From Eukaryota sp. GEM-RC1 (lineage: Eukaryota): DNA of 64,000 nt. Position 1 is the first letter of the stretch. Each line of letters opens with the position of its first letter. Below are positions 981 through 64,000 of this stretch, one piece after another. Below the pieces are notes generated by a model that was not told the origin of the DNA, did not search any database, and was given only the letters and a program-made list of their open reading frames with translations. Both the position numbers and the translations under genes were made by a program. The stretch covers positions 496,001 to 560,000 of the forward strand of contig JAUFOQ010000013.1 of assembly GCA_040285855.1 (NCBI GenBank), read 5' to 3'.

Positions 981-1011
981 GTAATTGCTTTTAACTAAAT
1001 TTCTTGGTCGT

Positions 1012-16589: not shown

Positions 16590-16626
16590 ATGACAAATGT
16601 GATTTTTATATACAATGAAAACTTGT

Positions 16627-18401: not shown

Positions 18402-18438
18402 ATGACAAATGTGATTTTTATATACAATGAAAACTTGT

Positions 18439-19553
18439 TTAAAAAGATATTCTATTTTTGTGTAGTGATTTTAACGACTGTTGTGTTTGACTGTTGATTG
18501 AGTTGTTATGTAGATAAATCGTAGAAACTGAAGAATTCACCTTCAAAGCTTCAGCAATTGCAATAGCTCCTTCAGGACCAATTGAATTGTTATATAGATA
18601 AATCTGAGAAACTGAAGAATTCACCTTCAAAGCTTCAGCAATTGCAATAGCTCCTTCACTACCAATTGAGTTGTTACCTAGAGAAATCGTAGAAACTGAA
18701 GAATTCACCTTCAAAGCTTCAGCAATTGCAATAGCTCCTTCACTACCAATTGAGTTGTTACCTAGAGAAATCGTAGAAACTGAAGAATTCACCTTCAACG
18801 CTTCAGCAATTGCAATAGCTCCTTCACTACCAATTGAGTTGTTACCTAGAGAAATCGTAGAAACTGAAGAATTCACCTTCAACGCTTCAACAATTGCAAT
18901 AGCTCCTTCATTACCAATTGAGTTGTCACCTAAACCAATCGTAGAAACTGAAGAATTCACCTTCAAAGCTTCAGCAATTGCAATAGCTCCTTCATTACCA
19001 ATTGAGTTGTTATATAGATAAATCTGAGAAACTGAAGAATTCACCTTCAAAGCTTCAGCAATTGCAATAGCACCTTCATTACCAATTGAGTTATTACCTA
19101 GATCGATCGTAGAAACTGAAGAATTCACCTTCAAAGCTTCAGCAATTACAATAGCTCCTTCATTACCAATTGAGTTGTTCCATAGATAAATCTCAGAAAC
19201 TGAAGAATTCACCTTCAAAGCTTCAGCAATTGCAATAGCTCCTTCATTACCAATTGAGTTGTTATCTAGATAAATCGCAGAAACTGAAGAATTCACCTTC
19301 AAAGCTTCAGCAATTGCAATAGCTCCTTCATTACCAATTGAGTTGCCACCTAGATAAATCTCAGAAACTGAACAATTCACCTTCAAAGCTTCAGCAATTG
19401 CAATAGCTCCTTCACTACCAATTGAATTGTGCCTTAGATAAATCGTAGAAACTGCAGAATTCACCTTCAAAGCTTCAGCAATTGCAATAGCTCCTTCAGG
19501 ACCAATTGAGTTGTAATCTAGATTGATCGTAGAAACCTCATATTTCTCACCAT
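18439..19553 (-). pseudogene. LRR cassette, no in-frame ATG, KNRISF end
   Basis: Open LRR frame (343 aa from TTG). Confidence 0.85.
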
Positions 19554-19883
19554 TTCATCTCAACAATTTTAATAATGAAACTGTACATTGGGAATTCGAT
19601 GGTAAATGTATAGTAGAAATTAACAATTCTTCAGATACTAATGAAGTTCTGTTGTTGTTGTGAACAATAACAAAAGTACCAGTAAATAACGTGTGTTATT
19701 CATTAGGGCAGTATTTAAAATCTGTACTTGAACATTTGCTAAACTACTATGATATTTGACTCTGTCACGGAGTTTTGTTTGGAATAATTTTTGGTCTGAG
19801 GAAAATGATTTTTCAAGTGTGTATTATACTCAACGATTAATTATGGTACTTTTGATGAGAGATTAATTATGATTAATGACAAA

Positions 19884-20467
19884 ACTATATGTTTAAGGCT
19901 AATGGTTTTCATGGAAAAATTGAACCTTTACTTGCTAATCTTTCTGATCAGCCAAAAGTTGATAGAAGTCGTGGTGATTTGATTGGTCCTTGGTTATCTT
20001 GTTAGGAAATTATCATGGATTTCACGACTGTTGATCCTTGTAATTCAAGATCAATTTCCAAAATTTTTGATGATGATTTTTCTGCTCTTGAAGTGGCTGA
20101 AAAAGGAAAAAATACAAAGTACTGTCACTTAATTAACCAATTGAATGTTGACAGGTACAATTCTTTTGTGTTTCAACCTTTTGCGATGTCGATATATGGT
20201 AATATTGGACCAGCTGCACAAGGTTTTTTAACCTCCTTTGGTAAATTGTGTTCTGAGTATGGTAAAGTTTTTAATGAAAATTTTTGGTTGAGTAGGTTAA
20301 CGTTTGCGTTGTTTCGTTCAATGCACAGACATTTTAATTCAATTTTAGGTAAATTGTTCGGTGATGGACAGAAGGATCATAGTTTAGATACTTTAGTTAG
20401 TGTCTGTTAGTTATTAACTTCTGCAAATGCATTTATTTCACTGATTGATCATAAACCCCGTTTTTTT
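19884..20467 (+). mobile_element. RLE retrotransposon fragment (copy 3)
   Basis: Near-identical to 16006-16589 with the same flanks. Confidence 0.8.
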
Positions 20468-20504
20468 ATGACAAATGTGATTTTTATATACAATGAAAAC
20501 TTGT

Positions 20505-21451
20505 TTAAAAAGATATTCTATTTTTGTGTAGTGATTTTAACGACTGTTGTGTTTGACTGTTGATTGAGTTGTTATGTAGATAAATCGTAGAAACTGAAGA
20601 ATTCACCTTCAAAGCTTCAGCAATTGCAATAGCTCCTTCACTACCAATTGAGTTGTTACCTAGAGAAATCGTAGAAACTGAAGAATTCACCTTCAAAGCT
20701 TCAGCAATTGCAATAGCTCCTTCACTACCAATTGAGTTGTTACCTAGAGAAATCGTAGAAACTGAAGAATTCACCTTCAACGCTTCAGCAATTGCAATAG
20801 CTCCTTCACTACCAATTGAGTTGTTACCTAGAGAAATCGTAGAAACTGAAGAATTCACCTTCAACGCTTCAACAATTGCAATAGCTCCTTCATTACCAAT
20901 TGAGTTGTCACCTAAACCAATCGTAGAAACTGAAGAATTCACCTTCAAAGCTTCAGCAATTGCAATAGCTCCTTCATTACCAATTGAGTTGTCACCTAAA
21001 CCAATCGTAGAAACTGAAGAATTCACCTTCAAAGCTTCAGCAATTGCAATAGCTCCTTCATTACCAATTGAGTTTTCAGCTAGATAAATCTCAGAAACTG
21101 AAGAATTCACCTTCAAAGCTTCAGCAATTGCAATAGCTCCTTCATTACAAATTGAGTTGTTCCATAGATAAATCTCAGAAACTGAAGAATTCACCTTCAA
21201 AGCTTCAGCAATTGCAATAGCTCCTTCATTACCAATTGAGTTGTTATCTAGATAAATCGCAGAAACTGAACAATTCACCTTCAAAGCTTCAGCAATTGCA
21301 ATAGCTCCTTCACTACCAATTGAATTGTGCCTTAGATAAATCGTAGAAACTGCAGAATTCACCTTCAAAGCTTCAGCAATTGCAATAGCTCCTTCAGGAC
21401 CAATTGAGTTGTAATCTAGATTGATCGTAGAAACCTCATATTTCTCACCAT
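20505..21451 (-). pseudogene. LRR cassette, no in-frame ATG, KNRISF end
   Basis: Open LRR frame (287 aa from TTG). Confidence 0.85.
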
Positions 21452-21781
21452 TTCATCTCAACAATTTTAATAATGAAACTGTACATTGGGAATTCGATGG
21501 TAAATGTATAGTAGAAATTAACAATTCTTCAGATACTAATGAAGTTCTGTTGTTGTTGTGAACAATAACAAAAGTACCAGTAAATAACGTGTGTTATTCA
21601 TTAGGGCAGTATTTAAAATCTGTACTTGAACATTTGCTAAACTACTATGATATTTGACTCTGTCACGGAGTTTTGTTTGGAATAATTTTTGGTCTGAGGA
21701 AAATGATTTTTCAAGTGTGTATTATACTCAACGATTAATTATGGTACTTTTGATGAGAGATTAATTATGATTAATGACAAA

Positions 21782-22366
21782 ACTATATGTTTAAGGCTAA
21801 TGGTTTTCATGGAAAAATTGAACCTTTACTTGCTAATCTTTCTGATCAGCCAAAAGTTGATAGAAGTCGTGGTGATTTGATTGGTCCTTGGTTATCTTGT
21901 TAGGGAAATTATCGTGGATTTCACGACTGTTGATCCTTGTAATTCAAGATCAATTTCCAAAATTTTTGATGATGATTTTTCTGCTCTTGAAGTGGCTGAA
22001 AAAGGAAAAAATACAAAGTACTGTCACTTAATTAACCAATTGAATGTTGACAGGTACAATTCTTTTGTGTTTCAACCTTTTGCGATGTCGATATATGGTA
22101 ATATTGGACCAGCTGCACAAGGTTTTTTAACCTCCTTTGGTAAATTGTGTTCTGAGTATGGTAAAGTTTTTAATGAAAATTTTTGGTTGAGTAGGTTAAC
22201 GTTTGCGTTGTTTTGTTCAATGCACAGACATTTTAATTCAATTTTAGGTAAGTTGTTCGGTGATGGACAGAAGGATCATAGTTTAGATACTTTAGTTAGT
22301 GTCTGTTAGTTATTAACTTCTGCAAATGCATTTATTTCACTGATTGATCATAAACCCCGTTTTTTT
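21782..22366 (+). mobile_element. RLE retrotransposon fragment (copy 4)
   Basis: Near-identical to 16006-16589 with the same flanks. Confidence 0.8.
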
Positions 22367-22403
22367 ATGACAAATGTGATTTTTATATACAATGAAAACT
22401 TGT

Positions 22404-22825
22404 TTAAAAAGATATTCTATTTTTGTGTAGTGATTTTAACGACTGTTGTGTTTGACTGTTGATTGAGTTGTTATGTAGATAAATCGTAGAAACTGAAGAA
22501 TTCACCTTCAAAGCTTCAGCAATTGCAATAGCTCCTTCACTACCAATTGAGTTGTTACCTAGAGAAATCGTAGAAACTGAAGCAATTGCAATAGCTCCTT
22601 CATTACCAATTGAGTTTTCAGCTAGATAAATCTCAGAAACTGAAGAATTCACCTTCAAAGCTTCAGCAATTGCAATAGCTCCTTCATTACCAATTGAGGT
22701 GTTTTCTAGATAAATCTGAGAAACTGAAGAATTCACCTTCAAAGCTTCAGCGATTGCAATAGCTCCTTCATTACCAATTGAGTTGTAATCTAGATTGATC
22801 GTAGAAACCTCATATTTCTCACCAT
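22404..22825 (-). pseudogene. Short LRR cassette with an in-frame internal deletion
   Basis: ..EGAIAIA-SVSTISLGNN.. lacks EALKVNS; KNRISF end. Confidence 0.85.
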
Positions 22826-22993
22826 TTCATCTCAACAATTTTAATAATGAAACTGTACATTGGGAATTCGATGGTAAATGTATAGTAGAAATTAACAATT
22901 CTTCAGATACTAATAAAGTTCTGTTGTTGTTGTGAACAATAACAAAAGTACCAGTAAATAACGTGTGTTATTCATTAGGGCAGTATTTAAAAT

Positions 22994-23209
22994 TTGAGTT
23001 GTTATCTAGATGGATCGTAGAAACTGAAGAATTCACCTTCAAAGCTTCAGCAATTGCAATAGCTCCTTCATTACCAATTGAGTTGTTATATAGATAAATC
23101 TCAGAAACTGAAGAATTCACCTTCAAAGCTTCAGCAATTGCAATAGCTCCTTCATTACCAATTGAGTTGTAATCTAGATTGATCGTAGAAACCTCATATT
23201 TCTCACCAT
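22994..23209 (-). pseudogene. 3'-truncated LRR cassette immediately downstream of the TRIM-LRR gene
   Basis: Two and a half repeats are fused directly to mid-spacer sequence (cagtatttaaaat|ttgagttg); no C-cap. Confidence 0.85.
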
Positions 23210-23568
23210 TTCATCTCAACAATTTTAATAATGAAACTGTACATTGGGAATTCGATGGTAAATGTATAGTAGAAATTAACAATTCTTCAGATACTAATAA
23301 AGTTCTGTTGTTGTTGTGAACAATAACAAAAGTACCAGTAAATAACGTGTGTTATTCATTAGGGCAGTATTTAAAATCTGTACTTGAACATCTGCTAAAC
23401 TACTATGATATTTGACTCTGTCACGGAGTTTTGTTTGGGATAATGTTTGTTCTGAGCAAAATGATTTTTCAAGTGTGTATTATATTCACCGATTAATTAT
23501 GGGACTTTTGATGAGAAATTAATTATGATTAATGACAAATGTGATTTTTATATACAATGAAAACTTGT

Positions 23569-25356
23569 TTAAAAATCCATTCTATTTTTGTGTAGTGATT
23601 TTAACGACTGTTGTGTTTGACTGTTGATTGAGTTGTTATATAGATAAATCTGAGAAACTGAAGCATTCACCTTCAGAGCTTCAGCAATTGCAATAGCTCC
23701 TTCATTACCAATTGAGTTTGCAGCTAGATAAATCTCAGAAACTGAAGAATTCACCTTCAAAGCTTCAGCAATTGCAATAGCTCCTTCATTACCAATTGAG
23801 TTGTTTCCTAGATAAATCGTAGAAACTGAAGAATTCACCTTCAAAGCTTCAGCAATTGCAATAGCTCCTTCATTACCAATTGAGTTGTCCCATAGATAAA
23901 TCTCAGAAACTGAAGAATTCACCTTCAAAGATTCAGCAATTGCAATTGCTCCTTCAGGACCAATTGAGTTGTTATATAGATTGATCGTAGAAACTGAAGA
24001 ATTCACCTTCAAAGCTTCAGCAATTGCAATAGCTCCTTCAGGACCAATTGAGTTGTTTTGTAGATTGATCGTAGAAACTGAAGAATTCACCTTCAAAGCT
24101 TCAGCAATTGCAATAGCTCCTTCATTACCAATTGAGTTGTCCCATAGATAAATCTCAGAAACTGAAGAATTCACCTTCAAAGATTCAGCAATTGCAATTG
24201 CTCCTTCAGGACCAATTGAGTTGTTATATAGATTGATCGTAGAAACTGAAGAATTCACCTTCAAAGCTTCAGCAATTGCAATAGCTCCTTCATTACCAAT
24301 TGAGTTGTTATCTAGATAAATCGTAGAAACCTCATTTCTCACCATTTCATCATAACAATTCTTCAACTTCGAACTAAGCTCGTTCCAATCAATAACAAGC
24401 TCCTTCTCTTCAACTTGTTGTACAGGACAAACACTTGTAATAGACTTGATTGGTGAAGGAGTGTCATCTAGAAGCCTAGCAGAAGCAACATTGGACTCCG
24501 AAACAACGGAAAGAGAGGCCAAACGACGAGAAGCTTCGGAGTGGATAGAGCAAAGTTCTTCATTTAAAGAGGAAATGATAGCAGATTGGTTGTTAAGTAG
24601 GGTGGAAGTTGTGGTAATGAAGTTTTCGCCGATCTTTGGTTTAAAGATAACAGGCTTACCTGATTTTAAGTCATTCATGATGGTAACAGAGTCTAACATA
24701 GTTTCTTGCAGCATATCAGTTAGAGTTTCTTTCATTTGAGCAAATCCAGATGCCGCTTGTTGGAGAGCATTTTCTGTACACTTTCCGACGGTTTCTACAG
24801 CAACGGCTAGTTCTTGATTGATGGCATTAATGCCATGTTCTACAGCAGATCTTCCTTCGTCAAACGGAAGCAAATTCTTCTTGTGCTGGTCGTGGTCCCC
24901 AAGGATAGCACAAATTGAGCAAAGCGCAACAGAACAAGAAGTACAGAAGAGGTCAAAGGATTTGGACGGATGGATCGGACATTTAGGCACAATGGAGGCG
25001 TGTTTCTTTTGCAGCGGAATTGCAACGTGGGTACGTAAGAGTTTCGGCCGATGAATGTCCTTAAAACATTGGTCGCATAAATCAGCGTCACATTCTGCGC
25101 AATAACAAGTGGCAACAGCTTCATCACACTCAATACAAATAGACTCACCCTGACCAGCAACGAAGGCTTCAACAGCTTCTTTCAACTTGTAGTTAGGACA
25201 CAGCCTTGACTTGTCCACTTCAGCTCTACAAATTGGACATCCGTCATGAGAAACAAGCCACTCCTGTAAATCCGACATACAAAAGGTGTGGCCACACCAA
25301 GTAGTTACCGGATTCTTGAGAATTTCATGACATATATCACATAGATAGTGAGACAT
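23569..25356 (-). CDS. TRIM-like E3 ubiquitin ligase: RING, B-box, B-box, coiled coil, then 8 RI/NLRC3-like 28-aa LRRs plus cap (595 aa)
   Basis: RING CDIC..CGHTFCMSD..CPIC; B-box CIEC..CYCAEC..LCDQC..H..H; B-box CPIH..LFCTSC..LCSIC..H..H; helical linker; repeats of LKVNSSVSxIxLxxNSIGxEGAIAIAEA. Uninterrupted ORF with ATG. Confidence 0.92.
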   Translation of the reverse strand: MSHYLCDICHEILKNPVTTWCGHTFCMSDLQEWLVSHDGCPICRAEVDKSRLCPNYKLKEAVEAFVAGQGESICIECDEAVATCYCAECDADLCDQCFKDIHRPKLLRTHVAIPLQKKHASIVPKCPIHPSKSFDLFCTSCSVALCSICAILGDHDQHKKNLLPFDEGRSAVEHGINAINQELAVAVETVGKCTENALQQAASGFAQMKETLTDMLQETMLDSVTIMNDLKSGKPVIFKPKIGENFITTTSTLLNNQSAIISSLNEELCSIHSEASRRLASLSVVSESNVASARLLDDTPSPIKSITSVCPVQQVEEKELVIDWNELSSKLKNCYDEMVRNEVSTIYLDNNSIGNEGAIAIAEALKVNSSVSTINLYNNSIGPEGAIAIAESLKVNSSVSEIYLWDNSIGNEGAIAIAEALKVNSSVSTINLQNNSIGPEGAIAIAEALKVNSSVSTINLYNNSIGPEGAIAIAESLKVNSSVSEIYLWDNSIGNEGAIAIAEALKVNSSVSTIYLGNNSIGNEGAIAIAEALKVNSSVSEIYLAANSIGNEGAIAIAEALKVNASVSQIYLYNNSINSQTQQSLKSLHKNRMDF

Positions 25357-30438: not shown

Positions 30439-33400
30439 CTAAGTTTTCAATGATTGCAAAGGATTCATCTTGATATCCGTGATCCCACTGATTTCTGGCT
30501 TTTTAATTTTTGAATTGCGTTTAAAAAACTGTTTAAACTGTTCTTTGTTCCTCATAAAGATATCCTCCGTCAATTCCAACAGAAAAGCAAACACACCAGA
30601 CATACCAGCTACAGTACCAAGGACTGTCCCTGCTAAGGTCATAAAGGTACGTGATGCAGACCTATCAGTCATTAATGCTAAAGAGAATGAATGGAACTGA
30701 AACTCCACTTTAAAACCAGTAGCGTGGTGGAATTGAGTGTTAGAGACAACAGAACCTGCAGAAGCAGATTCAAATCGAAGGTGATATCCTGTATTAGAAT
30801 TGGAGGGTTCAACATTGTCAGTGAAGACAGAAGGAATTAACTCGTATGAAAACACACTAGGATTATTCCCTTTCAAAACCATATTCTGAGGAGCACTCAC
30901 TGAAGAAGAGATGTTAGAGAAGGCGTTAGGAAGTGAAGCAAATGTTGAAATGTTAACAGCGACTGCATTGGCGTACGATGCTTCGTTGTTTGATTGGATA
31001 GAAAGTGAACTGATTGAGTTAGTTAACTGACAATCAAAATCAACTGAAATGAGACACGAATCAACAGAAGTTCCATCACCTATTGATGACGTGATGGTTG
31101 CCGGACAATCCACACCATTAGTTTGCAAAACAAACGACTCATTGGAACAACCAGTTGAATATCCTTGAAATTCTATAACAAAGAAACCATGAAAAGTAAA
31201 GTTTTTGGGTGTTAAAAACACTGGTTCTAAAGTTCGAGTATATGAAATATTGTCATATTGATATTCAAAAAACAAACTGCTTGCCATGAATAGAAGTCCT
31301 GCTATAAATAACCATGAATAAAATCCTCCTAGTTTAGTTTCTCGTTGGATAATTGGTTGGTTGTTTTCGGTATAATGACTTTGATTAAAAAAAATCAAAA
31401 TATCTAAAGAATGGTCCTTCACTTATGACAACGGAAGCAATAATTAACAGCGTCACAGCCAGAATCAGCAAATACAGAGCAATTGTTGAATATTCTTCTA
31501 GTTTTGCTAGTTGAGACGGTGGAAGTTCGGGTTGTTCTGAAATAAAATCTACCGTTGCATCCTCGCTTGAAAGTGGAACAACACTTCCAACAGGGCAATA
31601 CTTATCCTCTGGGCATGGTTCACAGTGAGAAGAACCATAGTTAGGATTATAAGTAGAGAAAGGACATGGGATGCATGACTCAAATCCATTTCCACCAATG
31701 AAATCACTGAAAAACCAGGATCACAAGGTGCAACTAGTGCCATTGCTTGAATAAACACCATAAAGCCCATTCTCACAGGCAACGCAACCTCCAAGCTCAT
31801 CAGCAGCACTACCAATAAAGCAATCAAATTCGCAATCAATAATCAGAAAATCAGAACAGGTCAGATTCATGATTGCAATTGCTGATAAAGGAGATGCTGG
31901 TGATCGCTCCCTGAGGATATGAGAATTACCACCATACCTCACAACTGAGTTTTGAAATGCAACTACGGTATAATCAGTATCAGTAAAGAAATCATTATCA
32001 TTAATGATTCCAAACGTGATACGGGAATCTTCAGTTTCCAATTTGGGAATACTGAAGAAATTTGTGATCCTAGGGATAAAGTCTCTATCATGACCACCAA
32101 AAATTAAAATGTTATTACCAAACTGAATTAAGTTGAAGGTGTGTACCTGGTTTCGGAATCTAAAAGGTTGGTAAAACCATCTTTTTGATTAGAACCATCA
32201 CGTGTTAAGCTATCAGGAGATATTTTCCATAGGTAGGTTTGATTGGCGTTGCGTGAATCATCCCGACCCCCAATCAGCATGACGTATGGATCATCAGTTT
32301 GGGCAACTAGAAGAGAACACCGATCCATTGGAGGAGGCCAGACTTCCTCTGACGTTTGAGAGATTTGAGTCCACCTGCCGGTCTGAAGATTGAGTGAGTA
32401 GAGCTCAGAAGAACGTGACGAAGCAGTGGCACCTCCGTAAACTATTAAAGAATGTTCATACACTGAACAACAAGCATAAGAACGAGGACTTGGAGGTGAT
32501 CCTTCAGTGACAAACCAAGTAAACTCTCGTGACACGTGGTCAAAAAGATGACGTCATTGGTGAGATCAGAAGTTGAAACAGTTTCCCCTCCAAATTGAAC
32601 AATTCTAGTACCATATACAACGCTACAATGACCAACACGGAGTGGTGGTGCATAAGAGCTTTGAACTTCTAGATAATTCCAAGAATACGTCATCAAGTCA
32701 AAATAATAGACATTCATATCACGTATATCACGAGAAAACGGACGACTTCCTCCAAGTACAAACATCTTTGTTCCAACTACAACTGATGAGTGACCAAATG
32801 TCCTTGGCGGAGTCGTTATTGAAGGAGATACAAGGTTAAAGTCAGCATAGGTAGGTGTCATATCTAACAATTCAGGATCGAACTCCAAAATAGAATTCTC
32901 TACTTGATCAAAGTAATCACCACCAAACAGATACAGTTTATCATTGATAACAAACGGAGTAGAACTAGAGTCCAGTCTAAACATTGAACCATCTCTTCTC
33001 ATTCTAAGCTGATCCCATGTCCAAGTTGAGATGTTGTTGTCATTAGTTGAAAGAACTTGTAGGATAGCAAAGTTAGCAACAAAGGGGTAAGTTGTAGCTA
33101 TACCCCAACCTCCAAAGATGAGAAGCTTTTGATTAATGAAAAGTAAGAATCTGAAATTCTTGTTGGTGCACCCGTAATTATGTCAGTTATATTTTCATAA
33201 AGAGAATATACTGAAAGTAAACTGTCATTTAACAAGTCAATCTCTACTGTTGCAATCCAGGTATGAAAATCATAACTAACTACCAAAGCTCTCAGAGTAA
33301 ACACGTGTGGTGACGTTTCAACCATGGACTGTACCACCATGTTTGCACCTTTGCGTCCCACTTCTAGTTCAATGTCTGATAGAGTCTTGACTTCATAAAA

Positions 33401-33820
33401 AGTAAGAGTTTCAAAGTCAAACAGCCATAAAGCTGAGGTAGGTGTAGGTATATAAGGGGAAGTAAGAGCAGGAAGTGTAAGCACGAGAGCAAACTCGTGA
33501 TCATTCAAAGAGAACTGGAAACTAGAAAGTACAGCACGCAGAGGAAGTTGTTGGCCTTGTGGAGGGGTAGATCGCCAACAAAGAGACTCGAAACTCCAGA
33601 TATAGATATCAGTAGAAGGAGCGTTGTTCAGTTCTCCACCGAATTGAATTATTTGAGACTTATAGTGCCACAGACAACCTCCAGAAGGTGGTAATGTACC
33701 AGCAGAGGGATATTGAAGCAAGAACTTAGAGCTCTCGGTTCAAGGAATTAAAGACCAGTCTGGTGAAGAAACCATAATTCAAAGAGATCGTCATCATGTT
33801 GGTCAATGCCACCCCAGAAG
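30439..33820 (-). pseudogene. Kelch-repeat, Cys-rich membrane protein, broken by several frameshifts and stops and by a hAT insertion
   Basis: Kelch GG motifs (IIQFGG, LYLFGG, MFVLGG, IVQFGG, LIVYGG, VMLIGG), CxxC-rich segment (GCVACENGLYG..C..CDPGF) and TM segments in ORF 30439-31422. The coding frame continues beyond the hAT at 34830-34867. Confidence 0.8.
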
Positions 33821-34867: not shown

Positions 34868-35036
34868 TGTTTCTGTACCTTATCAATAACGTGTTTTGTT
34901 TTTCAGATAGTCTACACAATAAATATCCAATACTGGGTCACTTAGTTAATTTTACATAATTTACTCAATTTAAGATGTACAAAAAGCAGTTTTGTGTTTT
35001 GACACAAAGACAAAAACTTTGTATTGACAACAACAC
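34868..35036. repeat. Dispersed repeat beginning TGTTTCTGTACC, copy A
   Basis: Aligns with 63837-64000 over the whole available length, with scattered mismatches. Confidence 0.85.
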
Positions 35037-35805
35037 TACAGTGTACATACATCTAATAATCAATATCCTCAAATCCCAGATTACCTATCTGGAAGTTCTG
35101 GTCTACTTTGGAAAACCCAAATCGTAATTAACATGTCTATAAACTCTCTCTTCAGAAATTAATTGTGTATTTCCTAAAACAATTCTGAACATTAGATTTA
35201 AAAAGGCACAATCGTAATTTCAATCACATATACTTGGCTATGTAGAAACCGCAAAAACTAATTTAGCACCACTAGGTCTTCGTAAATTTAACATCGTCAT
35301 ATGTGTTTCTTCTATTGACTGCAATATTCAATTCAACAATTTTGGTAACTCTTTGTGTATCACTATCAGTTTTACTGACTGAATGCAAAAGCACGTTTAT
35401 GAAACATCACTGAGAATAAGTAAAGCATCATATTTTGCATATGATAGACAATGCAGTCGTGATAATAATGAAATTGTACATTGGTAATTCGATGGTAAAT
35501 GTATAGTAGAAATTAACAATACTTCGAATACTAATAAATTTCTGTTGTTGTTGTGAACAATAGCAAAAGTACCAGTAAATAACGTGTGTTATTCACCAGG
35601 GTAGTATTTAAAATGTGTACTTGAACATCTGCTAAACTACTATGATATTTTACTCTGTCACGGAGTTTTGTTTGGGATAATGATTGTTCTGAGCTAAAGG
35701 ATTTTTCGAGTGTGTATTATATTCACCGATTAATTATGGTACTTTTGATGAGAAATTAATTATGATTAATGACAAATGTGATTTTTATATACAATGAAAA
35801 CTTGT

Positions 35806-36268: not shown

Positions 36269-36700
36269 TTAAAAATACATTCTATTTTTGTGTAGTGATC
36301 TTAACGACTGTTGTGTTTGACTGTTGATTGAGTTGTTATCTAGATAAATCGTAGAAACTGAAGAATTCACCTTCAAAGCTTCAGCAATTGCAATAGCTCC
36401 TTCATTACCAATTGAGTTGTCACCTAGATAAATCGTAGAAACTGAAGAATTCACCTTCAAAGCTTCACGGAGTTTTGTTTGGGATAATGATTGTTCTGAG
36501 CTAAATGATTTTTCAAGTGTGCATTACATTCATCGTTTAATTATGGTGCTTTTGATGAGAAATTAATTATGATTAATGACAAATGTGATTTAAATCGTAG
36601 AAACTGAAGAATTCACCTTCAAAGCTTCAGCAATTGCAATAGCTCCTTCATTACCAATTGAGTTGTAATCTAGATAAATCGTAGAGACCTCATTTCTCAC
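36269..36700 (-). pseudogene. Rearranged LRR cassette interrupted by spacer sequence
   Basis: LRR 36269-36467, spacer fragment 36465-36590, LRR 36591-36700. Confidence 0.85.
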
Positions 36701-37946: not shown

Positions 37947-38378
37947 TTAAAAATACATTCTATTTTTGTGTAGTGATCTTAACGACTGTTGTGTTTGACT
38001 GTTGATTGAGTTGTTATCTAGATAAATCGTAGAAACTGAAGAATTCACCTTCAAAGCTTCAGCAATTGCAATAGCTCCTTCATTACCAATTGAGTTGTCA
38101 CCTAGATAAATCGTAGAAACTGAAGAATTCACCTTCAAAGCTTCACGGAGTTTTGTTTGGGATAATGATTGTTCTGAGCTAAATGATTTTTCAAGTGTGC
38201 ATTACATTCATCGTTTAATTATGGTGCTTTTGATGAGAAATTAATTATGATTAATGACAAATGTGATTTAAATCGTAGAAACTGAAGAATTCACCTTCAA
38301 AGCTTCAGCAATTGCAATAGCTCCTTCATTACCAATTGAGTTGTAATCTAGATAAATCGTAGAGACCTCATTTCTCAC
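37947..38378 (-). pseudogene. Rearranged LRR cassette, duplicate of 36269-36700
   Basis: Same two junctions. Confidence 0.85.
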
Positions 38379-49712: not shown

Positions 49713-50717
49713 TTAAAAATACATTCTATTTTTGTGTAGTGATTTTAACGACTGTTGTGTTTGACTGTTGATTGAGTTGTTACCTAGATCGATCGCAGAA
49801 ACTGAAGAATTCACCTTCAAAGCTTCAGCAATTGCAATAGCTCCTTCAACACCAATTGAGTTGTAATCTAGATTGATCTTAGAAACTGAAGAATTCACCT
49901 TCAACGCTTCAGCAATTGCAATAGCTCCTTCAACACCAATTGAGTTGAAACCTAGATTGATCTTAGAAACTGAAGAATTTACCTTCAAAGCTTCAGCAAT
50001 TGCAATAGCTCCTTCAGTACCAATTGAGTTGTTAAATAGATAAATCGTAGAAACTGAAGAATTCACCTTCAAAGCTTCAGCAATTGCAATAGCTCCTTCA
50101 GTACCAATTGAGTTCGCAATAGCTCCTTCAGGACCAATTGAGTTGTTATCTAGAAAAATCGTAGAAACTGAAGAATTCACCTTCAAAGCTTCAGCAATCG
50201 CAATAGCTCCTTCAGGACCAATTGAGTTGTTATCTAGATAAATCGTAGAAACTGAAGAATTCACCTTCAAAGCTTCAGCAATTGCAATAGCTCCTTCATT
50301 ACCAATTGAGTTGTTCCATAGATAAATCTCAGAAACTGAAGAATTCACCTTCAAAGCTTCAGCAATTGCAATAGCTCCTTCATTACCAATTGAGTTGTCA
50401 CCTAGATAAATCTCAGAAACTGAAGAATTCACCTTCAAAGCTTCAGCAATTGCAATAGCTCCTTCAGGACCAATTGAGTTGTAACCTAGATCGAGCGTAG
50501 AAACTGAAGAATTCACCTTCAAAGCTTCAGCAATAGCTCCTTCATTACCAATTGAGTTGTCACCTAGATAAATCTCAGAAACTGAAGAATTCACCTTCAA
50601 AGCTTCAGCAATTGCAATAGCTCCTTCAGGACCAATTGAGTTGGTATATAGATTGATCGTAGAAACTGAAGAATTCACCCTTTCATCCTCAACAATTTTA
50701 ATAATGAAACTGTACAT
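49713..50717 (-). CDS. LRR-only cassette ORF, 334 aa
   Basis: Spacer-derived ATG in frame (MYSFIIKIVEDERVNSS). Confidence 0.7.
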   Translation of the reverse strand: MYSFIIKIVEDERVNSSVSTINLYTNSIGPEGAIAIAEALKVNSSVSEIYLGDNSIGNEGAIAEALKVNSSVSTLDLGYNSIGPEGAIAIAEALKVNSSVSEIYLGDNSIGNEGAIAIAEALKVNSSVSEIYLWNNSIGNEGAIAIAEALKVNSSVSTIYLDNNSIGPEGAIAIAEALKVNSSVSTIFLDNNSIGPEGAIANSIGTEGAIAIAEALKVNSSVSTIYLFNNSIGTEGAIAIAEALKVNSSVSKINLGFNSIGVEGAIAIAEALKVNSSVSKINLDYNSIGVEGAIAIAEALKVNSSVSAIDLGNNSINSQTQQSLKSLHKNRMYF

Positions 50718-51041: not shown

Positions 51042-51770
51042 TTAAAAAGAGATTCTATTTTTGTGTAGTGATTTTAACGACTGCTGTGTTTGACTGTTGA
51101 TTGAGTTGTTACCTAGATCGATCGCAGAAACTGAAGAATTCACCTTCAAAGCTTCAGCAATTGCAATAGCTCCTTCATTACCAATTGAGTTGTTTCCTAG
51201 ATTGATCTTAGAAACTGAAGAATTCACCTTCAAAGCTTCAGCAATCGCAATAGCTCCTTCATTACCAATTGAGTTGTTATATAGATTGATCGTAGAAACT
51301 GAAGAATTCACCTTCAAAGCTTCAGCAATGGCAATAGCTCCTTCAGGACCAATTGAGTTGTAACCTAGATAAATCGTAGTAACTGAAGAATTCACCTTCA
51401 ACGCTTCAGCAATTGCAATAGCTCCTTCACTACCAATTGAGTTGTTACCTAGAGAAATCGTAGAAACTGAAGAATTCACCTTCAACGCTTCAGCAATTGC
51501 AATAGCTCCTTCACTACCAATTGAGTTGTTACCTAGAGAAATCGTAGAAACTGAAGAATTCACCTTCAACGCTTCAGCAATTGCAATAGCTCCTTCATTA
51601 CCAATTAAGTTGTTATATAGATTGATCTTAGAAACTGAAGAATTCACCTTCAAAGCTTCAGCAATCGCAATAGCTCCTTCATTACCAATTGAGTTGTTAT
51701 ATAGATAAATCGCAGAAACTGAAGAATTCACCCTTTCATCCTCAACAATTTTAATAATGAAACTGTACAT
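51042..51770 (-). CDS. LRR-only cassette ORF, 242 aa
   Basis: MYSFIIKIVEDERVNSS..KNRISF. Confidence 0.7.
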   Translation of the reverse strand: MYSFIIKIVEDERVNSSVSAIYLYNNSIGNEGAIAIAEALKVNSSVSKINLYNNLIGNEGAIAIAEALKVNSSVSTISLGNNSIGSEGAIAIAEALKVNSSVSTISLGNNSIGSEGAIAIAEALKVNSSVTTIYLGYNSIGPEGAIAIAEALKVNSSVSTINLYNNSIGNEGAIAIAEALKVNSSVSKINLGNNSIGNEGAIAIAEALKVNSSVSAIDLGNNSINSQTQQSLKSLHKNRISF

Positions 51771-52094: not shown

Positions 52095-53687
52095 TTAAAA
52101 AGAGATTCTATTTTTGTGTAGTGATTTTAACGACTGCTGTGTTTGACTGTTGATTGAGTTGTTTCCTAGATTGATCTTAGAAACTGAAGAATTCACCTTC
52201 AAAGCTTCAGCAATTGCAATAGCTCCTTCAGGACCAATTGAGTTGTTATATAGATAAATCGTAGAAACTGAAGAATTCACCTTCAAAGCTTCAGCAATTG
52301 CAATAGCTCCTTCATCACCAATTGAGTTGTTTCCTAGATAAATCTTAGAAACTGAAGAATTCACCTTCAACGCTTCAGCAATTGCAATAGCTCCTTCATT
52401 ACCAATTGAGTTGTTTCCTAGATAAATCTTAGAAACTGAAGAATTCACCTTCAACGCTTCAGCAATTGCAATAGCTCCTTCATTACCAATTGAGTTGTTA
52501 TATAGATAAATCGCAGAAACTGAAGAATTCACCTTCAAAGCTTCAGCAATCGCAATAGCTCCTTCATTACCAATTGAGTTGTTATATAGATTGATCGTAG
52601 AAACTGAAGAATTTACCTTCAACGCTTCAGCAATTGCAATAGCTCCTTCAACACCAATTGAGTTGAAACCTAGATTGATCTTAGAAACTGAAGAATTCAC
52701 CTTCAAAGCTTCAGCAATTGCAATAGCTCCTTCAGTACCAATTGAGTTGTTAAATAGATAAATCGTAGAAACTGAAGAATTCACCTTCAAAGCTTCAGCA
52801 ATTGCAATAGCTCCTTCAGTACCAATTGAGTTCGCAATAGCTCCTTCAGGACCAATTGAGTTGTTATCTAGAAAAATCGTAGAAACTGAAGAATTCACCT
52901 TCAAAGCTTCAGCAATCGCAATAGCTCCTTCAGGACCAATTGAGTTGTTATCTAGAAAAATCGTAGAAACTGAAGAATTCACCTTCAAAGCTTCAGCAAT
53001 TGCAATAGCTCCTTCAACACCAATTGAGTTGAAACCTAGATTGATCTTAGAAACTGAAGAATTCACCTTCAAAGCTTCAGCAATTGCAATAGCTCCTTCA
53101 TTACCAATTGAGTTGTTATATAGATAAATCGTAGAAACTGAAGAATTCACCTTCAAAGCTTCAGCAATTGCAATAGCTCCTTCAGTACCAATTGAGTTCG
53201 CAATAGCTCCTTCAGGACCAATTGAGTTGTTATCTAGAAAAATCGTAGAAACTGAAGAATTCACCTTCAAAGCTTCAGCAATCGCAATAGCTCCTTCAGG
53301 ACCAATTGAGTTGTTATCTAGAAAAATCGTAGAAACTGAAGAATTCACCTTCAAAGCTTCAGCAATTGCAATAGCTCCTTCAACACCAATTGAGTTGAAA
53401 CCTAGATTGATCTTAGAAACTGAAGAATTCACCTTCAAAGCTTCAGCAATTGCAATAGCTCCTTCATTACCAATTGAGTTGTTATATAGATAAATCGTAG
53501 AAACTGAAGAATTCATCTTCAAAGCTTCAGCCATTGCAATAGCTCCTTCAGTACCAATTGAGTTGTTATATAGATAAATCGTAGAAACTGAAGAATTCAT
53601 CTTCAAAGCTTCAGCCATTGCAATAGCTCCTTCAGTACCAATTGAGTTGTTATATAGATTGATCGTAGAACTCTTATTTCTCAACAT
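52095..53687 (-). CDS. LRR-only cassette ORF, 530 aa (longest)
   Basis: Contains an internal block duplication with 366-bp period. Confidence 0.7.
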   Translation of the reverse strand: MLRNKSSTINLYNNSIGTEGAIAMAEALKMNSSVSTIYLYNNSIGTEGAIAMAEALKMNSSVSTIYLYNNSIGNEGAIAIAEALKVNSSVSKINLGFNSIGVEGAIAIAEALKVNSSVSTIFLDNNSIGPEGAIAIAEALKVNSSVSTIFLDNNSIGPEGAIANSIGTEGAIAIAEALKVNSSVSTIYLYNNSIGNEGAIAIAEALKVNSSVSKINLGFNSIGVEGAIAIAEALKVNSSVSTIFLDNNSIGPEGAIAIAEALKVNSSVSTIFLDNNSIGPEGAIANSIGTEGAIAIAEALKVNSSVSTIYLFNNSIGTEGAIAIAEALKVNSSVSKINLGFNSIGVEGAIAIAEALKVNSSVSTINLYNNSIGNEGAIAIAEALKVNSSVSAIYLYNNSIGNEGAIAIAEALKVNSSVSKIYLGNNSIGNEGAIAIAEALKVNSSVSKIYLGNNSIGDEGAIAIAEALKVNSSVSTIYLYNNSIGPEGAIAIAEALKVNSSVSKINLGNNSINSQTQQSLKSLHKNRISF

Positions 53688-54046
53688 TTCGTCTCAACAA
53701 TTTTAATAATGAAACTGTACATTGGTAATTCGATGGTAAATGTACGGTATCATTTAATAATATTTCAGATACTAATAAATTTCTGTTGCTGTTGAGAACA
53801 ATAGCAAAAGTACCAGTAAATAACGTGTGTTATTCACCAGGGTAGTATTTAAAATCTGTACTTGAACATCTGCTAAACTACTATGATATTTCACTCTGTC
53901 ACGGAGTTTTGTTTGGGATAATGATTGTTCTGAGCTAAAGGATTTTTCAAGTGTGTATTATATTGACCGATTAATTATGGTACTTTTGATGAGAAATTAA
54001 TTATGATTAATGACAAATGTGATTTTTATATACAATGAAAACTTGT

Positions 54047-54741
54047 TTAAAAATACTTTCTATTTTTGTGTAGTGATTTTAACGACTGTTGTGTTTGACT
54101 GTTGATTGAGTTGTTACCTAGAAAAATCGTAGAAACTGAAGAATTCACCTTCAAAGCTTCAGCAATCGCAATAGCTCCTTCATTACCAATTGAGTTTTCA
54201 GCTAGATAAATCTCAGAAACTGAAGAATTCACCTTCAAAGCTTCAGCAATTGCAATAGCTCCTTCATTACCAATTGAGTTGGTCCATAGATTGATCGTAG
54301 AAACTGAAGAATTCACCTTCAAAGCTTCAGCAATTGCAATAGCTCCTTCATTACCAATTGAGTTGTAATCTAGATCGATCCTAGAAACTGAGGAATTCAC
54401 CTTCAAAGCTTCAGCAATTGCAATAGCTCCTTCAGGACCAATTGAGTTGGTCCATAGATTGATCGTAGAAACTGAAGAATTCACCTTCAAAGATTCAGCA
54501 ATTGCAATAGCTCCTTCAGGACCAATTGAGTTGTTATCTAGATGGATCGTAGAAACTGAAGAATTCACCTTCAAAGCTTCAGCAATTGCAATAGCTCCTT
54601 CATTACCAATTGAGTTGTTATATAGATAAATCTCAGAAACTGAAGAATTCACCTTCAAAGCTTCAGCAATTGCAATAGCTCCTTCATTACCAATTGAGTT
54701 GTAATCTAGATTGATCGTAGAAACCTCATATTTCTCACCAT
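54047..54741 (-). pseudogene. LRR cassette of array-1 type, no in-frame ATG
   Basis: Carries the aaat-at-gag 2-bp insertion; KNRKYF end. Confidence 0.8.
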
Positions 54742-55101
54742 TTCATCTCAACAATTTTAATAATGAAACTGTACATTGGGAATTCGATGGTAAATGTATA
54801 GTAGAAATTAACAATTCTTCAGATACTAATAAAGTTCTGTTGTTGTTGTGAACAATAACAAAAGTACCAGTAAATAACGTGTGTTATTCATTAGGGCAGT
54901 ATTTAAAATCTGTACTTGAACATCTGCTAAACTACTATGATATTTGACTCTGTCACGGAGTTTTGTTTGGGATAATGTTTGTTCTGAGCAAAATGATTTT
55001 TCAAGTGTGTATTATATTCACCGATTAATTATGGGACTTTTGATGAGAAATTAATTATGATTAATGACAAATGTTATTTTTTATATACAATGAAAACTTG
55101 T

Positions 55102-55878
55102 TTAAAAATCCATTCTATTTTTGTGTAGTGATTTTAACGACTGTTGTGTTTGACTGTTGATTGAGTTGTTATCTAGAAAAATCGTAGAAACTGAAGAATT
55201 CACCTTCAAAGCTTCAGCAATCGCAATAGCTCCTTCATTACCAATTGAGTTGTTACATAGATAAATCTGAGAAACTGAAGCATTCACCTTCAAAGCTTCA
55301 GCAATTGCAAAAGCTCCTTCATTACCAATTGAGTTGGTCCATAGATTGATCGTAGAAACTGAAGAATTCACCTTCAAAGATTCAGCAATTGCAATAGCTC
55401 CTTCAGGACCAATTGAGTTGTTATCTAGATGGATCGTAGAAACTGAAGAATTCACCTTCAAAGCTTCAGCAATTGCAATAGCTCCTTCATTACCAATTGA
55501 GTTGTTATATAGATAAATCTCAGAAACTGAAGAATTCACCTTCAAAGCTTCAGCAATTGCAATAGCTCCTTCATTACCAATTGAGTTGGTACATAGATTG
55601 ATCGTAGAAACTGAAGAATTGACCTTCAAAGATTCAGCAATTGCAATAGCTCCTTCAGTACCAATTGAGTTGTTAAATAGATAAATCTTAGAAACTGAAG
55701 AATTCACCTTCAAAGCTTCAGCAATTGCAATAGCTCCTTCATTACCAATTGAGTTGTTATATAGATAAATCGTAGAAACTGAAGAATTCACCTTCAAAGC
55801 TTCAGCCATTGCAATAGCTCATTCAGTACCAATTGAGTTGTTATATAGATTGATCGTAGAACTCTCATTTCTCAACAT
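55102..55878 (-). pseudogene. Chimeric LRR cassette with a nonsense codon in the first repeat and a TRIM1-type KNRMDF end
   Basis: GGA>TGA at about 55820; the downstream frame is open for 235 aa. Confidence 0.8.
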
Positions 55879-56237
55879 TTCGTCTCAACAATTTTAATAA
55901 TGAAACTGTACATTGGTAATTCGATGGTAAATGTACGGTATCATTTAACAATATTTCAGATACTAATAAATTTCTGTTGCTGTTGAGAACAATAGCAAAA
56001 GTACCAGTAAATAACGTGTGTTATTCACCAGGGTAGTATTTAAAATCTGTACTTGAACATCTGCTAAACTACTATGATATTTCACTCTGTCACGGAGTTT
56101 TGTTTGGGATAATGATTGTTCTGAGCTAAAGGATTTTTCAAGTGTGTATTATATTCACCGATTAATTATGGTACTTTTGATGAGAAATTAATTATGATTA
56201 ATGACAAATGTGATTTTTATATACAATGAAAACTTGT

Positions 56238-56876
56238 TTAAAAATACATTCTATTTTTGTGTAGTGATTCTAACGACTGTTGTGTTTGACTGTTGATTGA
56301 GTTGTTACCTAGATCGATCGCAGAAACTGAAGAATTCACCTTCAAAGCTTCAGCAATTGCAATAGCTCCTTCAACACCAATTGAGTTGTAATCTAGATTG
56401 ATCTTAGAAACTGAAGAATTCACCTTCAACGCTTCAGCAATTGCAATAGCTCCTTCAACACCAATTGAGTTGAAACCTAGATTGATCTTAGAAACTGAAG
56501 AATTTACCTTCAAAGCTTCAGCAATTGCAATAGCTCCTTCAGTACCAATTGAGTTGTTAAATAGATAAATCGTAGAAACTGAAGAATTCACCTTCAAAGC
56601 TTCAGCAATTGCAATAGCTCCTTCAGTACCAATTGAGTTCGCAATAGCTCCTTCAGGACCAATTGAGTTGTTATCTAGAAAAATCGTAGAAACTGAAGAA
56701 TTCACCTTCAAAGCTTCAGCAATTGCAATAGCTCCTTCATTACCAATTGAGTTGTTATATAGATAAATCGTAGAAACTGAAGAATTCACCTTCAAAGCTT
56801 CAGCCATTGCAATAGCTCCTTCAGTACCAATTGAGTTGTTATATAGATTGATCGTAGAACTCTCATTTCTCAACAT
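56238..56876 (-). CDS. LRR-only cassette ORF, 212 aa
   Basis: Intact. Confidence 0.7.
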   Translation of the reverse strand: MLRNESSTINLYNNSIGTEGAIAMAEALKVNSSVSTIYLYNNSIGNEGAIAIAEALKVNSSVSTIFLDNNSIGPEGAIANSIGTEGAIAIAEALKVNSSVSTIYLFNNSIGTEGAIAIAEALKVNSSVSKINLGFNSIGVEGAIAIAEALKVNSSVSKINLDYNSIGVEGAIAIAEALKVNSSVSAIDLGNNSINSQTQQSLESLHKNRMYF

Positions 56877-61872: not shown

Positions 61873-62820
61873 TTAAAAATACATTCTATTTTTGTGCAGT
61901 GATTTTAACGTCTGTTGTGTTTGACTGTTGATTGAGTTGTTACCTAGATCGATCGCAGAAACTGAAGAATTCACCTTCAACGCTTCAGCAATTGCAATAG
62001 CTCCTTCAACACCAATTGAGTTGTAATCTAGATTGATCTTAGAAACTGAAGAATTCACCTTCAACGCTTCAGCAATTGAAATAGCTCCTTCAACACCAAT
62101 TGAGTTGAAACCTAGATTGATCTTAGAAACTGAAGAATTTACCTTCAAAGCTTCAGCAATTGCAATAGCTCCTTCAGTACCAATTGAGTTGTTAAATAGA
62201 TAAATCGTAGAAACTGAAGAATTCACCTTCAAAGCTTCAGCAATTGCAATAGCTCCTTCAGTACCAATTGAGTTCGCAATAGCTCCTTCAGGACCAATTG
62301 AGTTGTTATCTAGAAAAATCGTAGAAACTGAAGAATTCACCTTCAAAGCTTCAGCAATCGCAATAGCTCCTTCAGGACCAATTGAGTTCGCAATAGCTCC
62401 TTCAGGACCAATTGAGTTCGCAATAGCTCCTTCAGGACCAATTGAGTTGATATCTAGAAAAATCGTAGAAACTGAAGAATTCACCTTCAAAGCTTCAGCA
62501 ATCGCAATAGCTCCTTCAGGACCAATTGAGTTGTTATCAAGAAAAATCGTAGAAACTGAAGAATTCACCTTCAAAGCTTCAGCAATCGCAATAGCTTCTT
62601 CAACACCAATTGAGTTGAAACCTAGATAAATCTCAGAAACTGAAGAATTCACCTTCAAAGATTCAGCAATTGCAATAGCTCCTTCATTACCAATTGAGTT
62701 GTTCCTTAGATCGATCGTAGAAACTGAAGAATTCACCTTCAAAGATTCAGCAATTGCAATAGCTCCTTCAGGACCAATTGAGTTGTTATCTAGATAAATC
62801 GTAGAAACCTCATTTCTCAC
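61873..62820 (-). pseudogene. LRR cassette, open frame of 315 codons but no ATG
   Basis: Same 5' end as 60564-61511; 1309-bp period. Confidence 0.8.
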
Positions 62821-63182: not shown

Positions 63183-63836
63183 TTAAAAATACATTCTATT
63201 TTTGTGTAGTGATTTTAACGACTGTTGTGTTTGACTGTTGATTGAGTTGTTATCTAGATAAATCGTAGTAACTGAAGAATTCACCTTCAAAGCTTCAGCA
63301 ATTGCAATAGCTCCTTCATTACCAATTAAGTTGTTATATAGATTGATCGTAGAAACTGAAGAATTCACCTTCAAAGATTCAGCAATTGCAATAGCTCCTT
63401 CAGGACCAATTGAGTTGTTATCTAGATAAATCGTAGTAACTGAAGAATTCACCTTCAAAGCTTCAGCAATTGCAATAGCTCCTTCATTACCAATTGAGTT
63501 GTTATCTAGATAAATCGTAGAAACCTCATTTCTCACCATTTCATCATAACAATTCTTCAACTTCGAACTAAGCTTGCTCCAATCAATAACAAGCTCCTTC
63601 TCTTCAACTTGTTGTACAAGGCACACACTTTCAATAGACTTGATTGGCGAAGGAGTGTCATCTAGAAGCCTAGCAGAAGCAACATTGGACTCCGAAACAA
63701 CGGAAAGAGAGGCCAAACGACGAGAAGCTTCGGAGTGAATAGAGCAAAGTTCTTCATTTAAAGAGGAGATGATAGCGGATTGGTTGTTAAGTAGGGTGGA
63801 AGTTGTGGTAATGAAGTTTCCTCTTTCAATCTCACC
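63183..63836 (-). pseudogene. 3' half of a second TRIM-LRR paralogue (linker, 3 LRRs, cap), interrupted at its 5' side by a repeat
   Basis: NFITTTSTLLNNQSAIISSLNEELCSIHSEASRRLASLSVVSESN..KLKNCYDEMVRNEV is nearly identical to 24330-24624. The frame closes upstream within the repeat at 63837 onward. Confidence 0.85.
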
Positions 63837-64000
63837 TGTTTCTGTACCTTATCAATAACGTGTTTTGTTTTTAAGATATTCTAGAGAAAAAATATCCAAT
63901 ACTGGGTCGATTAGTTAATCTTACATAATTTACTAAATTTAAGATGTACAAAAGCGGTTTTGTGTGTTGACACAGAGACAAAAACTTTTTTTGACAACAC
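63837..64000. repeat. Dispersed repeat beginning TGTTTCTGTACC, copy B (runs off the window)
   Basis: Matches 34868-35036. Confidence 0.85.

Follow-up and report, generated by a model that had tools for sequence, protein, structure and literature searches.

Evidence for Recent Exchange between the 3′ End of a TRIM-LRR Gene and a Distant Array of Headless LRR Cassettes

Can the coding end of a gene for a putative recognition protein recombine with headless copies of itself that lie tens of kilobases away, and if it does, does sequence flow from the copies into the gene or from the gene into the copies? The question is posed by a stretch of 64,000 nucleotides of eukaryotic DNA (the window, 34% G+C) from Eukaryota sp. 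GEM-RC1, positions 496,001 to 560,000 of contig JAUFOQ010000013.1 (assembly GCA_040285855.1), in which a gene that we call TRIM1 is accompanied by two arrays of leucine-rich repeat (LRR) units. The organism is an anaerobic protist, identified as a skoliomonad metamonad in the available part of PMC11316075, where assemblies are described that are long-read, polished with short reads, and repeat-masked ahead of gene calling. An exchange of this kind proves little by itself, as ectopic exchange among repeats is expected; its weight here comes from the partners, a putative recognition protein's coding end and a 25-unit headless LRR array 31 kb away, which do recombine.

TRIM1 and the Tandem Copies of Its 3′ End

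TRIM1 (23569–25356, minus strand) is one uninterrupted open reading frame (ORF) of 595 amino acids that comprises a RING domain, two B-boxes, helices, a linker, and RI-type LRRs, and it is exactly the annotated, unspliced protein P0001 of the protein collection. A Pfam search places the RING at residues 5–42 and the B-boxes at approximately 73–110 and 123–158, and it recognizes LRR_6; helices are predicted at 165–220 and 244–282, and these suggest a coiled coil. In a structure model built on 13 aligned relatives, the LRRs are confidently predicted to form a solenoid whose fold matches the LRRs of NOD2 and ribonuclease inhibitor. E3 ligases of the TRIM/RBCC type consist of a RING, two B-boxes, a long helical segment, and a variable C-terminal binding domain. 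TRIM1 has the same N-terminal order, provided that the predicted helices form the coiled coil; its C-terminal domain is an RI-type LRR, and its ligase activity is predicted. TRIM1 is thus predicted to act as a ubiquitin ligase that selects its targets through the LRR face, with diversifying selection acting on that face, and viral or other invader proteins are our likeliest guess at those targets.

The fusion of RING/B-box and LRR looks young and lineage-restricted, since no LRR family was found at an E value of 1e-6 on RING/B-box relatives labelled TZLM1-RC, a sister species (5 of the 10 looked up). The label Eukaryota sp. GEM-RC1 is borne by all four other proteins matched in an N-terminal search and by both cluster-mates, and none of the 32 matches in a metagenome pattern scan is a TRIM1 relative; two distant loci among the 196 matches of a metagenome LRR scan, at 32–40% identity, were not used. 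At least four proteins (P0001, P0002, P0004, and P0007) have the full RING/B-box/LRR head. Ahead of the LRRs, P0007 is identical to TRIM1 at 335 of 340 residues, and the two have no module in common; they differ at 27 of 40 hypervariable residues and 6 of 184 scaffold residues. P0007 carries TISLGN, otherwise typical of array 1, three times, and 6 of its 11 segments, with none of its 10 adjacent segment pairs, are found in cassettes. The near-identical head, the absence of common modules, and the presence of TISLGN together indicate that the LRRs turn over fast and that genes and arrays share a pool. The same LRR tail is seen on P0002, P0004, P0007–P0009, P0014, P0030, P0099, P0274, P0276, and P0280, which are distributed over at least four contigs of the named relative and are part of a much larger RI-type LRR family.

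Array 1 (14935–23223, minus strand) holds six headless cassettes, all with frameshifted heads and the last of them cut in its tail; array 2 (35463–62837, minus strand) holds 25, with several head types. The 31 cassettes are contiguous, lack the 5′ part of TRIM1, and are highly similar to its variable region. Each follows the same plan: a head from about codon 334, LRR modules of 84 bp, a tail of 22 codons, and approximately 345 bp of the gene's 3′ flank. Judged from sequence, this plan shows the arrays to be tandem copies of the 3′ end of the gene (LRRs, tail, and flank). Past the last spacer of array 2 the flank continues into non-array DNA (34868–35462, minus strand), and from this the breakpoint at which the short unit was founded can be placed; since the two arrays have that breakpoint in common, they are of one origin. 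Every cassette is in effect barcoded by its spacer type, head type, and private modules.

At the head of array 2 stands a 5′-truncated TRIM unit (63183–63819, minus strand) that begins near codon 244, is 96% identical to TRIM1 over 296 nt, and represents a longer duplication unit with a breakpoint of its own. We considered it as a second intact gene and rejected that assignment; it is a truncated duplicate joined to flank (63837–63999) that is also found at 34868–35032. The presence of another unit or gene beyond position 64000 is implied by this arrangement. The junction with the gene's distal 3′ flank is made through 16 filler bases. Residues 245–344 of the unit are 99% like P0007, as against 96% for TRIM1, and P0006, which ends at residue 232, might be the matching 5′ piece.

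Heads could be matched for 30 of the 31 cassettes, the unit at 49359 having been missed by the pattern. An in-frame ATG is joined to an intact frame in 14 and to a broken frame in 4; a further 8 have an intact frame with no in-frame ATG, and 4 have neither. Frames thus run intact to the tail in 22 of 30 cassettes and are broken in 8, and 12 lack an in-frame ATG. None of the 11 cassette ORFs that were looked up is in the annotated protein collection, an absence that repeat masking could explain.

Several irregularities mark the arrays. Array 1 stops abruptly inside a tail (14935–14873, minus strand) against unrelated sequence, and the native distal flank of TRIM1 is therefore missing. Four array-1 spacers carry an insertion of about 580 bp (16006–16586, 17820–18398, 19884–20464, and 21782–22363) with an 8-bp target duplication, and a diverged copy (86%) lies at 7738–8165. 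The insertion's ORF, which has no Pfam match and no convincing PDB match, may correspond to the end of a non-LTR retroelement that encodes a restriction-like endonuclease. Inside an LRR module lies a 127-bp stretch of spacer, at 36465–36591 and again at 38143–38269, the flanking LRR stretch having been duplicated with it; it is likely a template-switch scar.

A Tract Held in Common across 31.5 kb

The original claim was that a TRIM1-like tail and first cassette are shared by loci about 30 kb apart, and exact-match painting, pairwise distances, and approximately unbiased (AU) tests bear this out. Positions 54526–55172 in array 2 match 22994–23639 beside TRIM1, on the same strand (minus) and at an offset of 31,532 bp, over 647 bp with 2 differences. 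Identity is exact for 549 nt (54526–55074 = 22994–23542); a substitution at 55075 and one extra T follow, and the match then resumes for 95 nt (55078–55172 = 23545–23639). The array-2 copy comprises a terminal LRR with a KNRMDF tail, a type-A spacer, a frameshifted head, and two modules; the TRIM1-side copy comprises the last 22 codons of TRIM1, its spacer, and a broken first cassette, and it terminates at a non-homologous join at 22994. A divergence of 0.3% resembles that of the newest tandem copies in array 2, whose type-B spacers show 0–5 differences each, and the exchange is recent by that measure. The tract is thus supported as the trace of an exchange of recent date in which array 2 and the 3′ end of TRIM1 took part, and it shows that homology-directed exchange reaches the coding end of TRIM1 from 31 kb away.

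The spacer within the tract, s54742 (54742–55101), is of type A, that is, the gene's own 3′ flank of about 345 bp joined to a cassette head. In an alignment of 32 spacers (361 columns, 77 of them variable) it differs from s23210, the spacer directly behind TRIM1, at 2 of 360 columns. Its distance is 10–11 differences to the four insertion-bearing spacers of array 1, 25 and 23 to its neighbours s53688 and s55879, and 16–37 to the full set of 25 other array-2 spacers. The pair s54742 and s23210 agree at 8 sites in a state that is not found in any of those 25, and just one of the eight, the atgggacttttg site, is private to the pair. It had been claimed that s54742 bears the diagnostic bases of s23210, unlike its array-2 neighbours. 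The spacer is indeed of array-1 type, but two of the proposed markers, gggaattcg and cattagggcag, are present throughout array 1; ataaagttctg is limited to s22826, s23210, and s54742.

A maximum-likelihood tree of 31 spacers (the truncated s22826 was omitted) agrees. The expected grouping of s54742 with s23210 is recovered at the level of the array, with s54742 joining the five array-1 spacers at 100/100, while support for s23210 in particular is only 90/65; the pairing is weak because only one of the eight diagnostic sites is private to it. Placement of s54742 among its 12 type-B array-2 neighbours, the outcome that would have spoken against exchange, is rejected (p-AU 1.3e-16), and the AU test does not reject array 1 as a clade without s54742 (p 0.17). 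Seven of the eight spacer sites may reflect ancestry shared with the rest of array 1; for the block as a whole, a shared ancestral state is rejected. No inverted repeats that might serve as a recombination signal were found in the spacer, and 13 inverted pairings of one spacer site with the LRR repeat in 53600–56300 (15–17 nt, 87–88%) were taken as chance.

The tract forms part of a larger block of array-1 type inside array 2 (54168–55632, minus strand; about 1.46 kb), with array-1 matches at 54168–54281 and 54526–55172 and exact array-2 matches on either side (55633–55779, 147 nt; 54118–54182, 65 nt). Upstream, the junction appears to lie within 55633–55656 (minus strand), module positions 16–39, in a module whose codon 5 is of array-2 type and which is INLWT-like from position 40 on. 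Downstream, it appears to lie within 54168–54182 (minus strand), the overlap of matches to 15186–15299 in array 1 and 62454–62518 in array 2, and it could reach as far as the tail. Both probable edges thus fall in the same invariant stretch just past codon 5, in accord with the proposal that the junctions are within LRR repeats.

Two cassettes are involved. Cassette X (55102–55884, minus strand) runs from an array-2 MLRNESS head through modules INLCT, EIYLYN, TIHLDN, INLWT, VNAS-QIYLCN, and TIFLDN to an RMDF tail, and its first module carries a stop (55819–55821). Cassette Y (54047–54747, minus strand) has an array-1 head with a 2-bp insertion and no in-frame ATG, seven modules, and an RKYF tail. 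They share 265 bp exactly (54437–54701 = 55324–55588). Cassette X had been said to end with TRIM1 hallmarks, which holds for KNRMDF and VNASVSQIYL (two copies each, in TRIM1 and in cassette X) and not for AESLKV (12 copies). Likewise, of the modules that cassette Y was said to share with the broken unit at 22994–23209, EIYLYNN and TIHLDNN occur in three copies, the third within cassette X, and INLDYN, with 19, is not diagnostic; AESLKV and INLDYN were dropped as markers, being too widespread in the window. What ties the block to TRIM1 in particular is the single spacer site private to the pair, together with RMDF, VNAS, and the modules EIYLYN and TIHLDN.

The block in its entirety is not accounted for by a single event. 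Its VNAS module differs from that of TRIM1 at 3 of 84 sites, more than the rate in the tract would predict (P 0.002), and an extra module of array-2 type intervenes between the VNAS module and the RMDF tail of cassette X. The block also contains modules that are unique within the window (INLWT three times, INLCT, IYLCN, RIDLDY, and RKYF), and INLWT could be traced neither to another part of the window nor to any TRIM-LRR protein that was scanned, so that the donor in its true state is missing. Smaller LRR patches of array-1 type in array-2 cassettes (50241–50398 and 51403–51576) are probably older exchanges. The patches contain EIYLWN and TISLGN, and the cassettes that carry them have RISF tails and spacers of another type.

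Direction of Flow and Competing Readings

The block is most likely an immigrant in array 2, its flow having been from the gene locus to the array. The frameshifted head with the 2-bp insertion is found in 6 of 6 array-1 cassettes, and among the 24 array-2 heads that were matched it appears once; array 1 is also where the two sub-lineages of type-A spacer are located. These distributions place the block's origin near TRIM1 rather than in array 2. The final step, of 647 bp, can be told in two ways that cost about the same number of events. Either the tract was copied into array 2 and a deletion at 22994 came afterwards, or the copying was earlier and a one-ended back-copy, stopping at the 22994 join, came later. 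That the tract stops in array 1 exactly at a non-homologous join is also what a one-ended back-copy from array 2 would leave. We favour the first history because such joins are common here and because s22826, a spacer remnant, shows no difference from the block across 241 nt.

To either side of the block the sequence is again of array-2 type, and the 12 kb between the arrays and the 5′ part of TRIM1 have been kept. A single crossover between direct repeats would delete the TRIM1 head and those 12 kb, so we infer a conversion-like copy, a double crossover, or the insertion of a circle; the exchange was likely non-crossover and spanned 31.5 kb. About 1.46 kb would have been copied from the TRIM1 locus into an array-2 cassette, the near-identical 84-bp LRR repeats serving as homology, and break repair or replication restart may invade any LRR repeat, near or far. 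Our best reading is a young, lineage-restricted TRIM-LRR family whose 3′ ends were tandemly duplicated into headless arrays that now exchange repeats. Repeats and whole 3′ ends would thereby pass among genes and headless copies in a form of concerted evolution, as in the fungal HNWD receptors. The cassettes, on this view, would arise as a by-product without being selected; old repeat variants would be preserved in them and could now and then be fed back. Instability of a generic kind is evident at the locus, which has two different duplication breakpoints, a join left by deletion at 22994, a piece of spacer lodged in an LRR, and a tail that is cut; no motif common to the joins was seen. The exchange is real and recent, and with moderate confidence we read it as most likely unprogrammed and as having run from the gene locus into the array.

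A gene beside 31 headless, near-identical cassettes also invites the suggestion that the arrays are kept by selection as a donor library that rewrites the LRRs of expressed TRIM genes, as vls cassettes do for vlsE, and the event was originally put forward as the type that such a cassette model needs. That is only half right. The exchange does extend to the coding end of the gene, and a library would account for near-identical heads (TRIM1, P0007) with wholly different LRRs; a model of the vls or VLR type, however, requires movement from cassette to gene, whereas here a cassette received sequence, and the eight LRR modules of TRIM1 contain no tract templated by the cassettes of this window. The longest match, 95 nt between TRIM1 and the cassette at 59119, is at chance level: among 500 strings shuffled from cassette pieces the median longest match is 83 nt, and 23% reach 95 nt or more. 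All 27 multi-module cassette rows share 156–611 nt with another unit, whereas the longest match of the TRIM1 LRR body, 225 nt, is to itself. Four of nine TRIM1 variable segments are found in cassettes (0.25 is expected by chance for each), and none of its eight adjacent pairs is found in this window's cassettes, as none of the ten in P0007 is. The frames that remain intact and the lack of annotated cassette proteins would suit a silent library, although masking could explain the latter.

Selection can be read from 227 modules of 100 types. Nearly all amino-acid variation falls at codons 5, 23, 25, 27, and 28, with 36 nonsynonymous (N) to 2 synonymous (S) changes by a count of steps rather than a codon model. 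In RI-type LRRs the strands make up the concave binding face. Codons 23–27 are on predicted strands, and four of the five variable codons are on or just after a strand in the model, so that the variation would lie on the predicted binding face, as a library would have it. Constraint is seen in the scaffold changes that are widespread (8 N : 11 S, p 0.007), and the rare ones outside TRIM1, which include a stop, look neutral (12 N : 3 S, p 0.77); 3 of the 37 scaffold changes, rare and in TRIM1, were left out of both classes. Rare states are not enriched at the five variable codons (6 vs 14, p 0.13), which speaks against a maintained library. The pattern suggests a repeat pool that took its shape in expressed genes and has come to drift in the arrays. 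Silent donors would likewise be expected to show neutral recent mutation over short times.

The comparison may be extended to Borrelia itself. Both loci have contiguous, highly identical cassettes beside a gene (PMC11499132, available part), here 31 that begin at about TRIM1 codon 334 and lack the gene's 5′ part, and the nonsynonymous excess of vls variable regions (PMC3828179, in the portion available) may have its counterpart in the module pool (36 N : 2 S, framework 8 N : 11 S), although rare cassette changes are neutral and are not enriched at the variable codons, and the excess in the pool could be inherited from the genes. In the accessible text of PMC11499132, what defines the vls system is that sequence passes from the cassettes to one expression site and in that direction only. 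Here there are at least four full heads, an array-2 cassette holds TRIM1-side sequence, and TRIM1 is no mosaic of this window's cassettes by the matches given above. Moreover, VlsE is a surface antigen, whereas TRIM1 is a predicted intracellular ligase. These differences, together with the lack of LRRs on the sister-species relatives that were looked up, lead us to consider a selected cassette system unlikely. Equally doubtful is its larger implication, that a free-living anaerobic protist diversifies an intracellular TRIM-LRR ligase receptor from silent cassettes by gene conversion and so maintains an anticipatory immune repertoire; if it did, the 647-bp tract would represent either sequence copied back into TRIM1 or a renewal of the library's stock.

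Flow from cassette to gene need not be programmed. The block may have moved to array 2 earlier, and a break behind TRIM1 may then have been repaired from it, giving TRIM1 its RMDF tail, its spacer, and a broken first cassette. It fits this account that the tract ends in array 1 at a join into mid-spacer with 1–3 bp of microhomology, that array 1 has no INLWT modules, and that the block's VNAS module resembles an older copy of TRIM1's. Two long-range moves are required, however, and the identity of s22826 leaves little time between them; a plain deletion accounts for the join, which is of a kind common here. We regard this history as quite improbable.

It is also conceivable that many units of array 2 are genuine genes that encode LRRs alone and begin at MLRNESS, and that we are observing conversion between ordinary tandem paralogs. 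The 14 of 30 heads with an in-frame ATG and an intact frame would allow it, but that ATG is the internal Met336 of TRIM1, and 12 of 30 heads have lost it or have it out of frame; moreover, a full product could come from neither of the block's two units (cassette X has its stop and cassette Y no ATG), rare changes look neutral, and 0 of the 11 ORFs looked up are in the protein collection. We find this reading very unlikely. Even less weight can be given to an assembly or polishing artefact that put TRIM1-side sequence into array 2. The arrays are long and near-identical, the evidence comes from one assembly, and the frame breaks in a neighbouring kelch-repeat gene could be residual errors; yet the two copies of the tract differ by a substitution, and the block is not a duplicate of array-1 sequence, because it has modules unique in the window and continues past the array-1 cut. 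Finally, the idea that the cassettes serve as alternative last exons, to which the TRIM head is spliced, can be set aside as extremely improbable, for although a donor-like ATG|GTGAGA at the start of the TRIM1 LRRs would join GAG|GTTTCT of array-1 heads in frame, no pyrimidine tract precedes the GAG that would have to act as acceptor, TRIM1 forms a single ORF that has a stop of its own and P0001 is unspliced, and array 2 lies upstream of TRIM1.

Known Systems and Other Features of the Window

A recent and probably unprogrammed exchange out of the gene locus has its closest analogy, in our view, in the HNWD/NWD genes of Podospora (het-d, het-e), where near-identical repeats are exchanged within and between loci, pseudogenes included, and repeat number varies (PMC1805685, available text). 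Repeat exchange here likewise involves non-coding copies (54168–55632, 50241–50398, and 51403–51576), and few surface codons diversify, five as against four per repeat on the HNWD binding face (the same source), with codons 5, 23, 25, 27, and 28 placed on or near strands by the model. The fungal repeats, as that text presents them, are WD40 units on NACHT proteins at dispersed loci (PMC1805685); here they are RI-type LRRs on a RING/B-box protein, headless 3′-end copies stand in tandem beside the gene, and flank DNA moves with the repeats. In TRIM1, Pfam finds no NACHT and no WD40, only RING, B-box, and LRR_6.

The germline VLR gene of lampreys is incomplete and is assembled somatically. TRIM1, an uninterrupted ORF of 595 codons, differs in this respect; the likeness is in the LRR modules held in flanking cassettes (PMC3341825, in the part available). 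The same part of that source describes recent ROCO paralogs of the brown alga Ectocarpus that are near-identical save for a reshuffled LRR domain, with one exon per repeat and spare repeats in introns, whereas the locus studied here has intronless 84-bp repeats and extragenic 3′-end cassettes. There, too, non-coding LRRs as a receptor reservoir are still a hypothesis, presented without direct proof (PMC3341825). Tetrahymena offers a further likeness in young, species-specific protist LRR genes with ectopic recombination and a nearby non-LTR element; their repeat units are 90-bp exons separated by introns (PMC6564038, as far as its available text goes), unlike the intronless, headless arrays of GEM-RC1. 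Literature searches, which most subscription journals lie outside of, returned nothing on point for this locus or for a TRIM-LRR cassette system, and no paper joining Skoliomonas with leucine-rich or TRIM with Excavata and LRR.

The remainder of the window holds unrelated features. Between the arrays, 30439–33800 (minus strand) resembles a gene for a kelch-repeat membrane protein, with several frame changes and no obvious introns; either it is a pseudogene or it contains residual assembly errors. A fragment of a hAT transposase dimerisation domain lies at 417–737 (minus strand; E 3e-13), and 985–2435 (plus strand) carries a RING fragment (Sina_RING) followed by a 390-amino-acid ORF in another frame. 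The atlas clusters nearest to that ORF have PF26128 (Gad2) in 92–94% of their members, with very high scores, and the top cluster is 90% viral, mostly Nucleocytoviricota. An isolated, older LRR fragment at 3939–4066, on the strand opposite to the arrays, is 72–84% like their modules.
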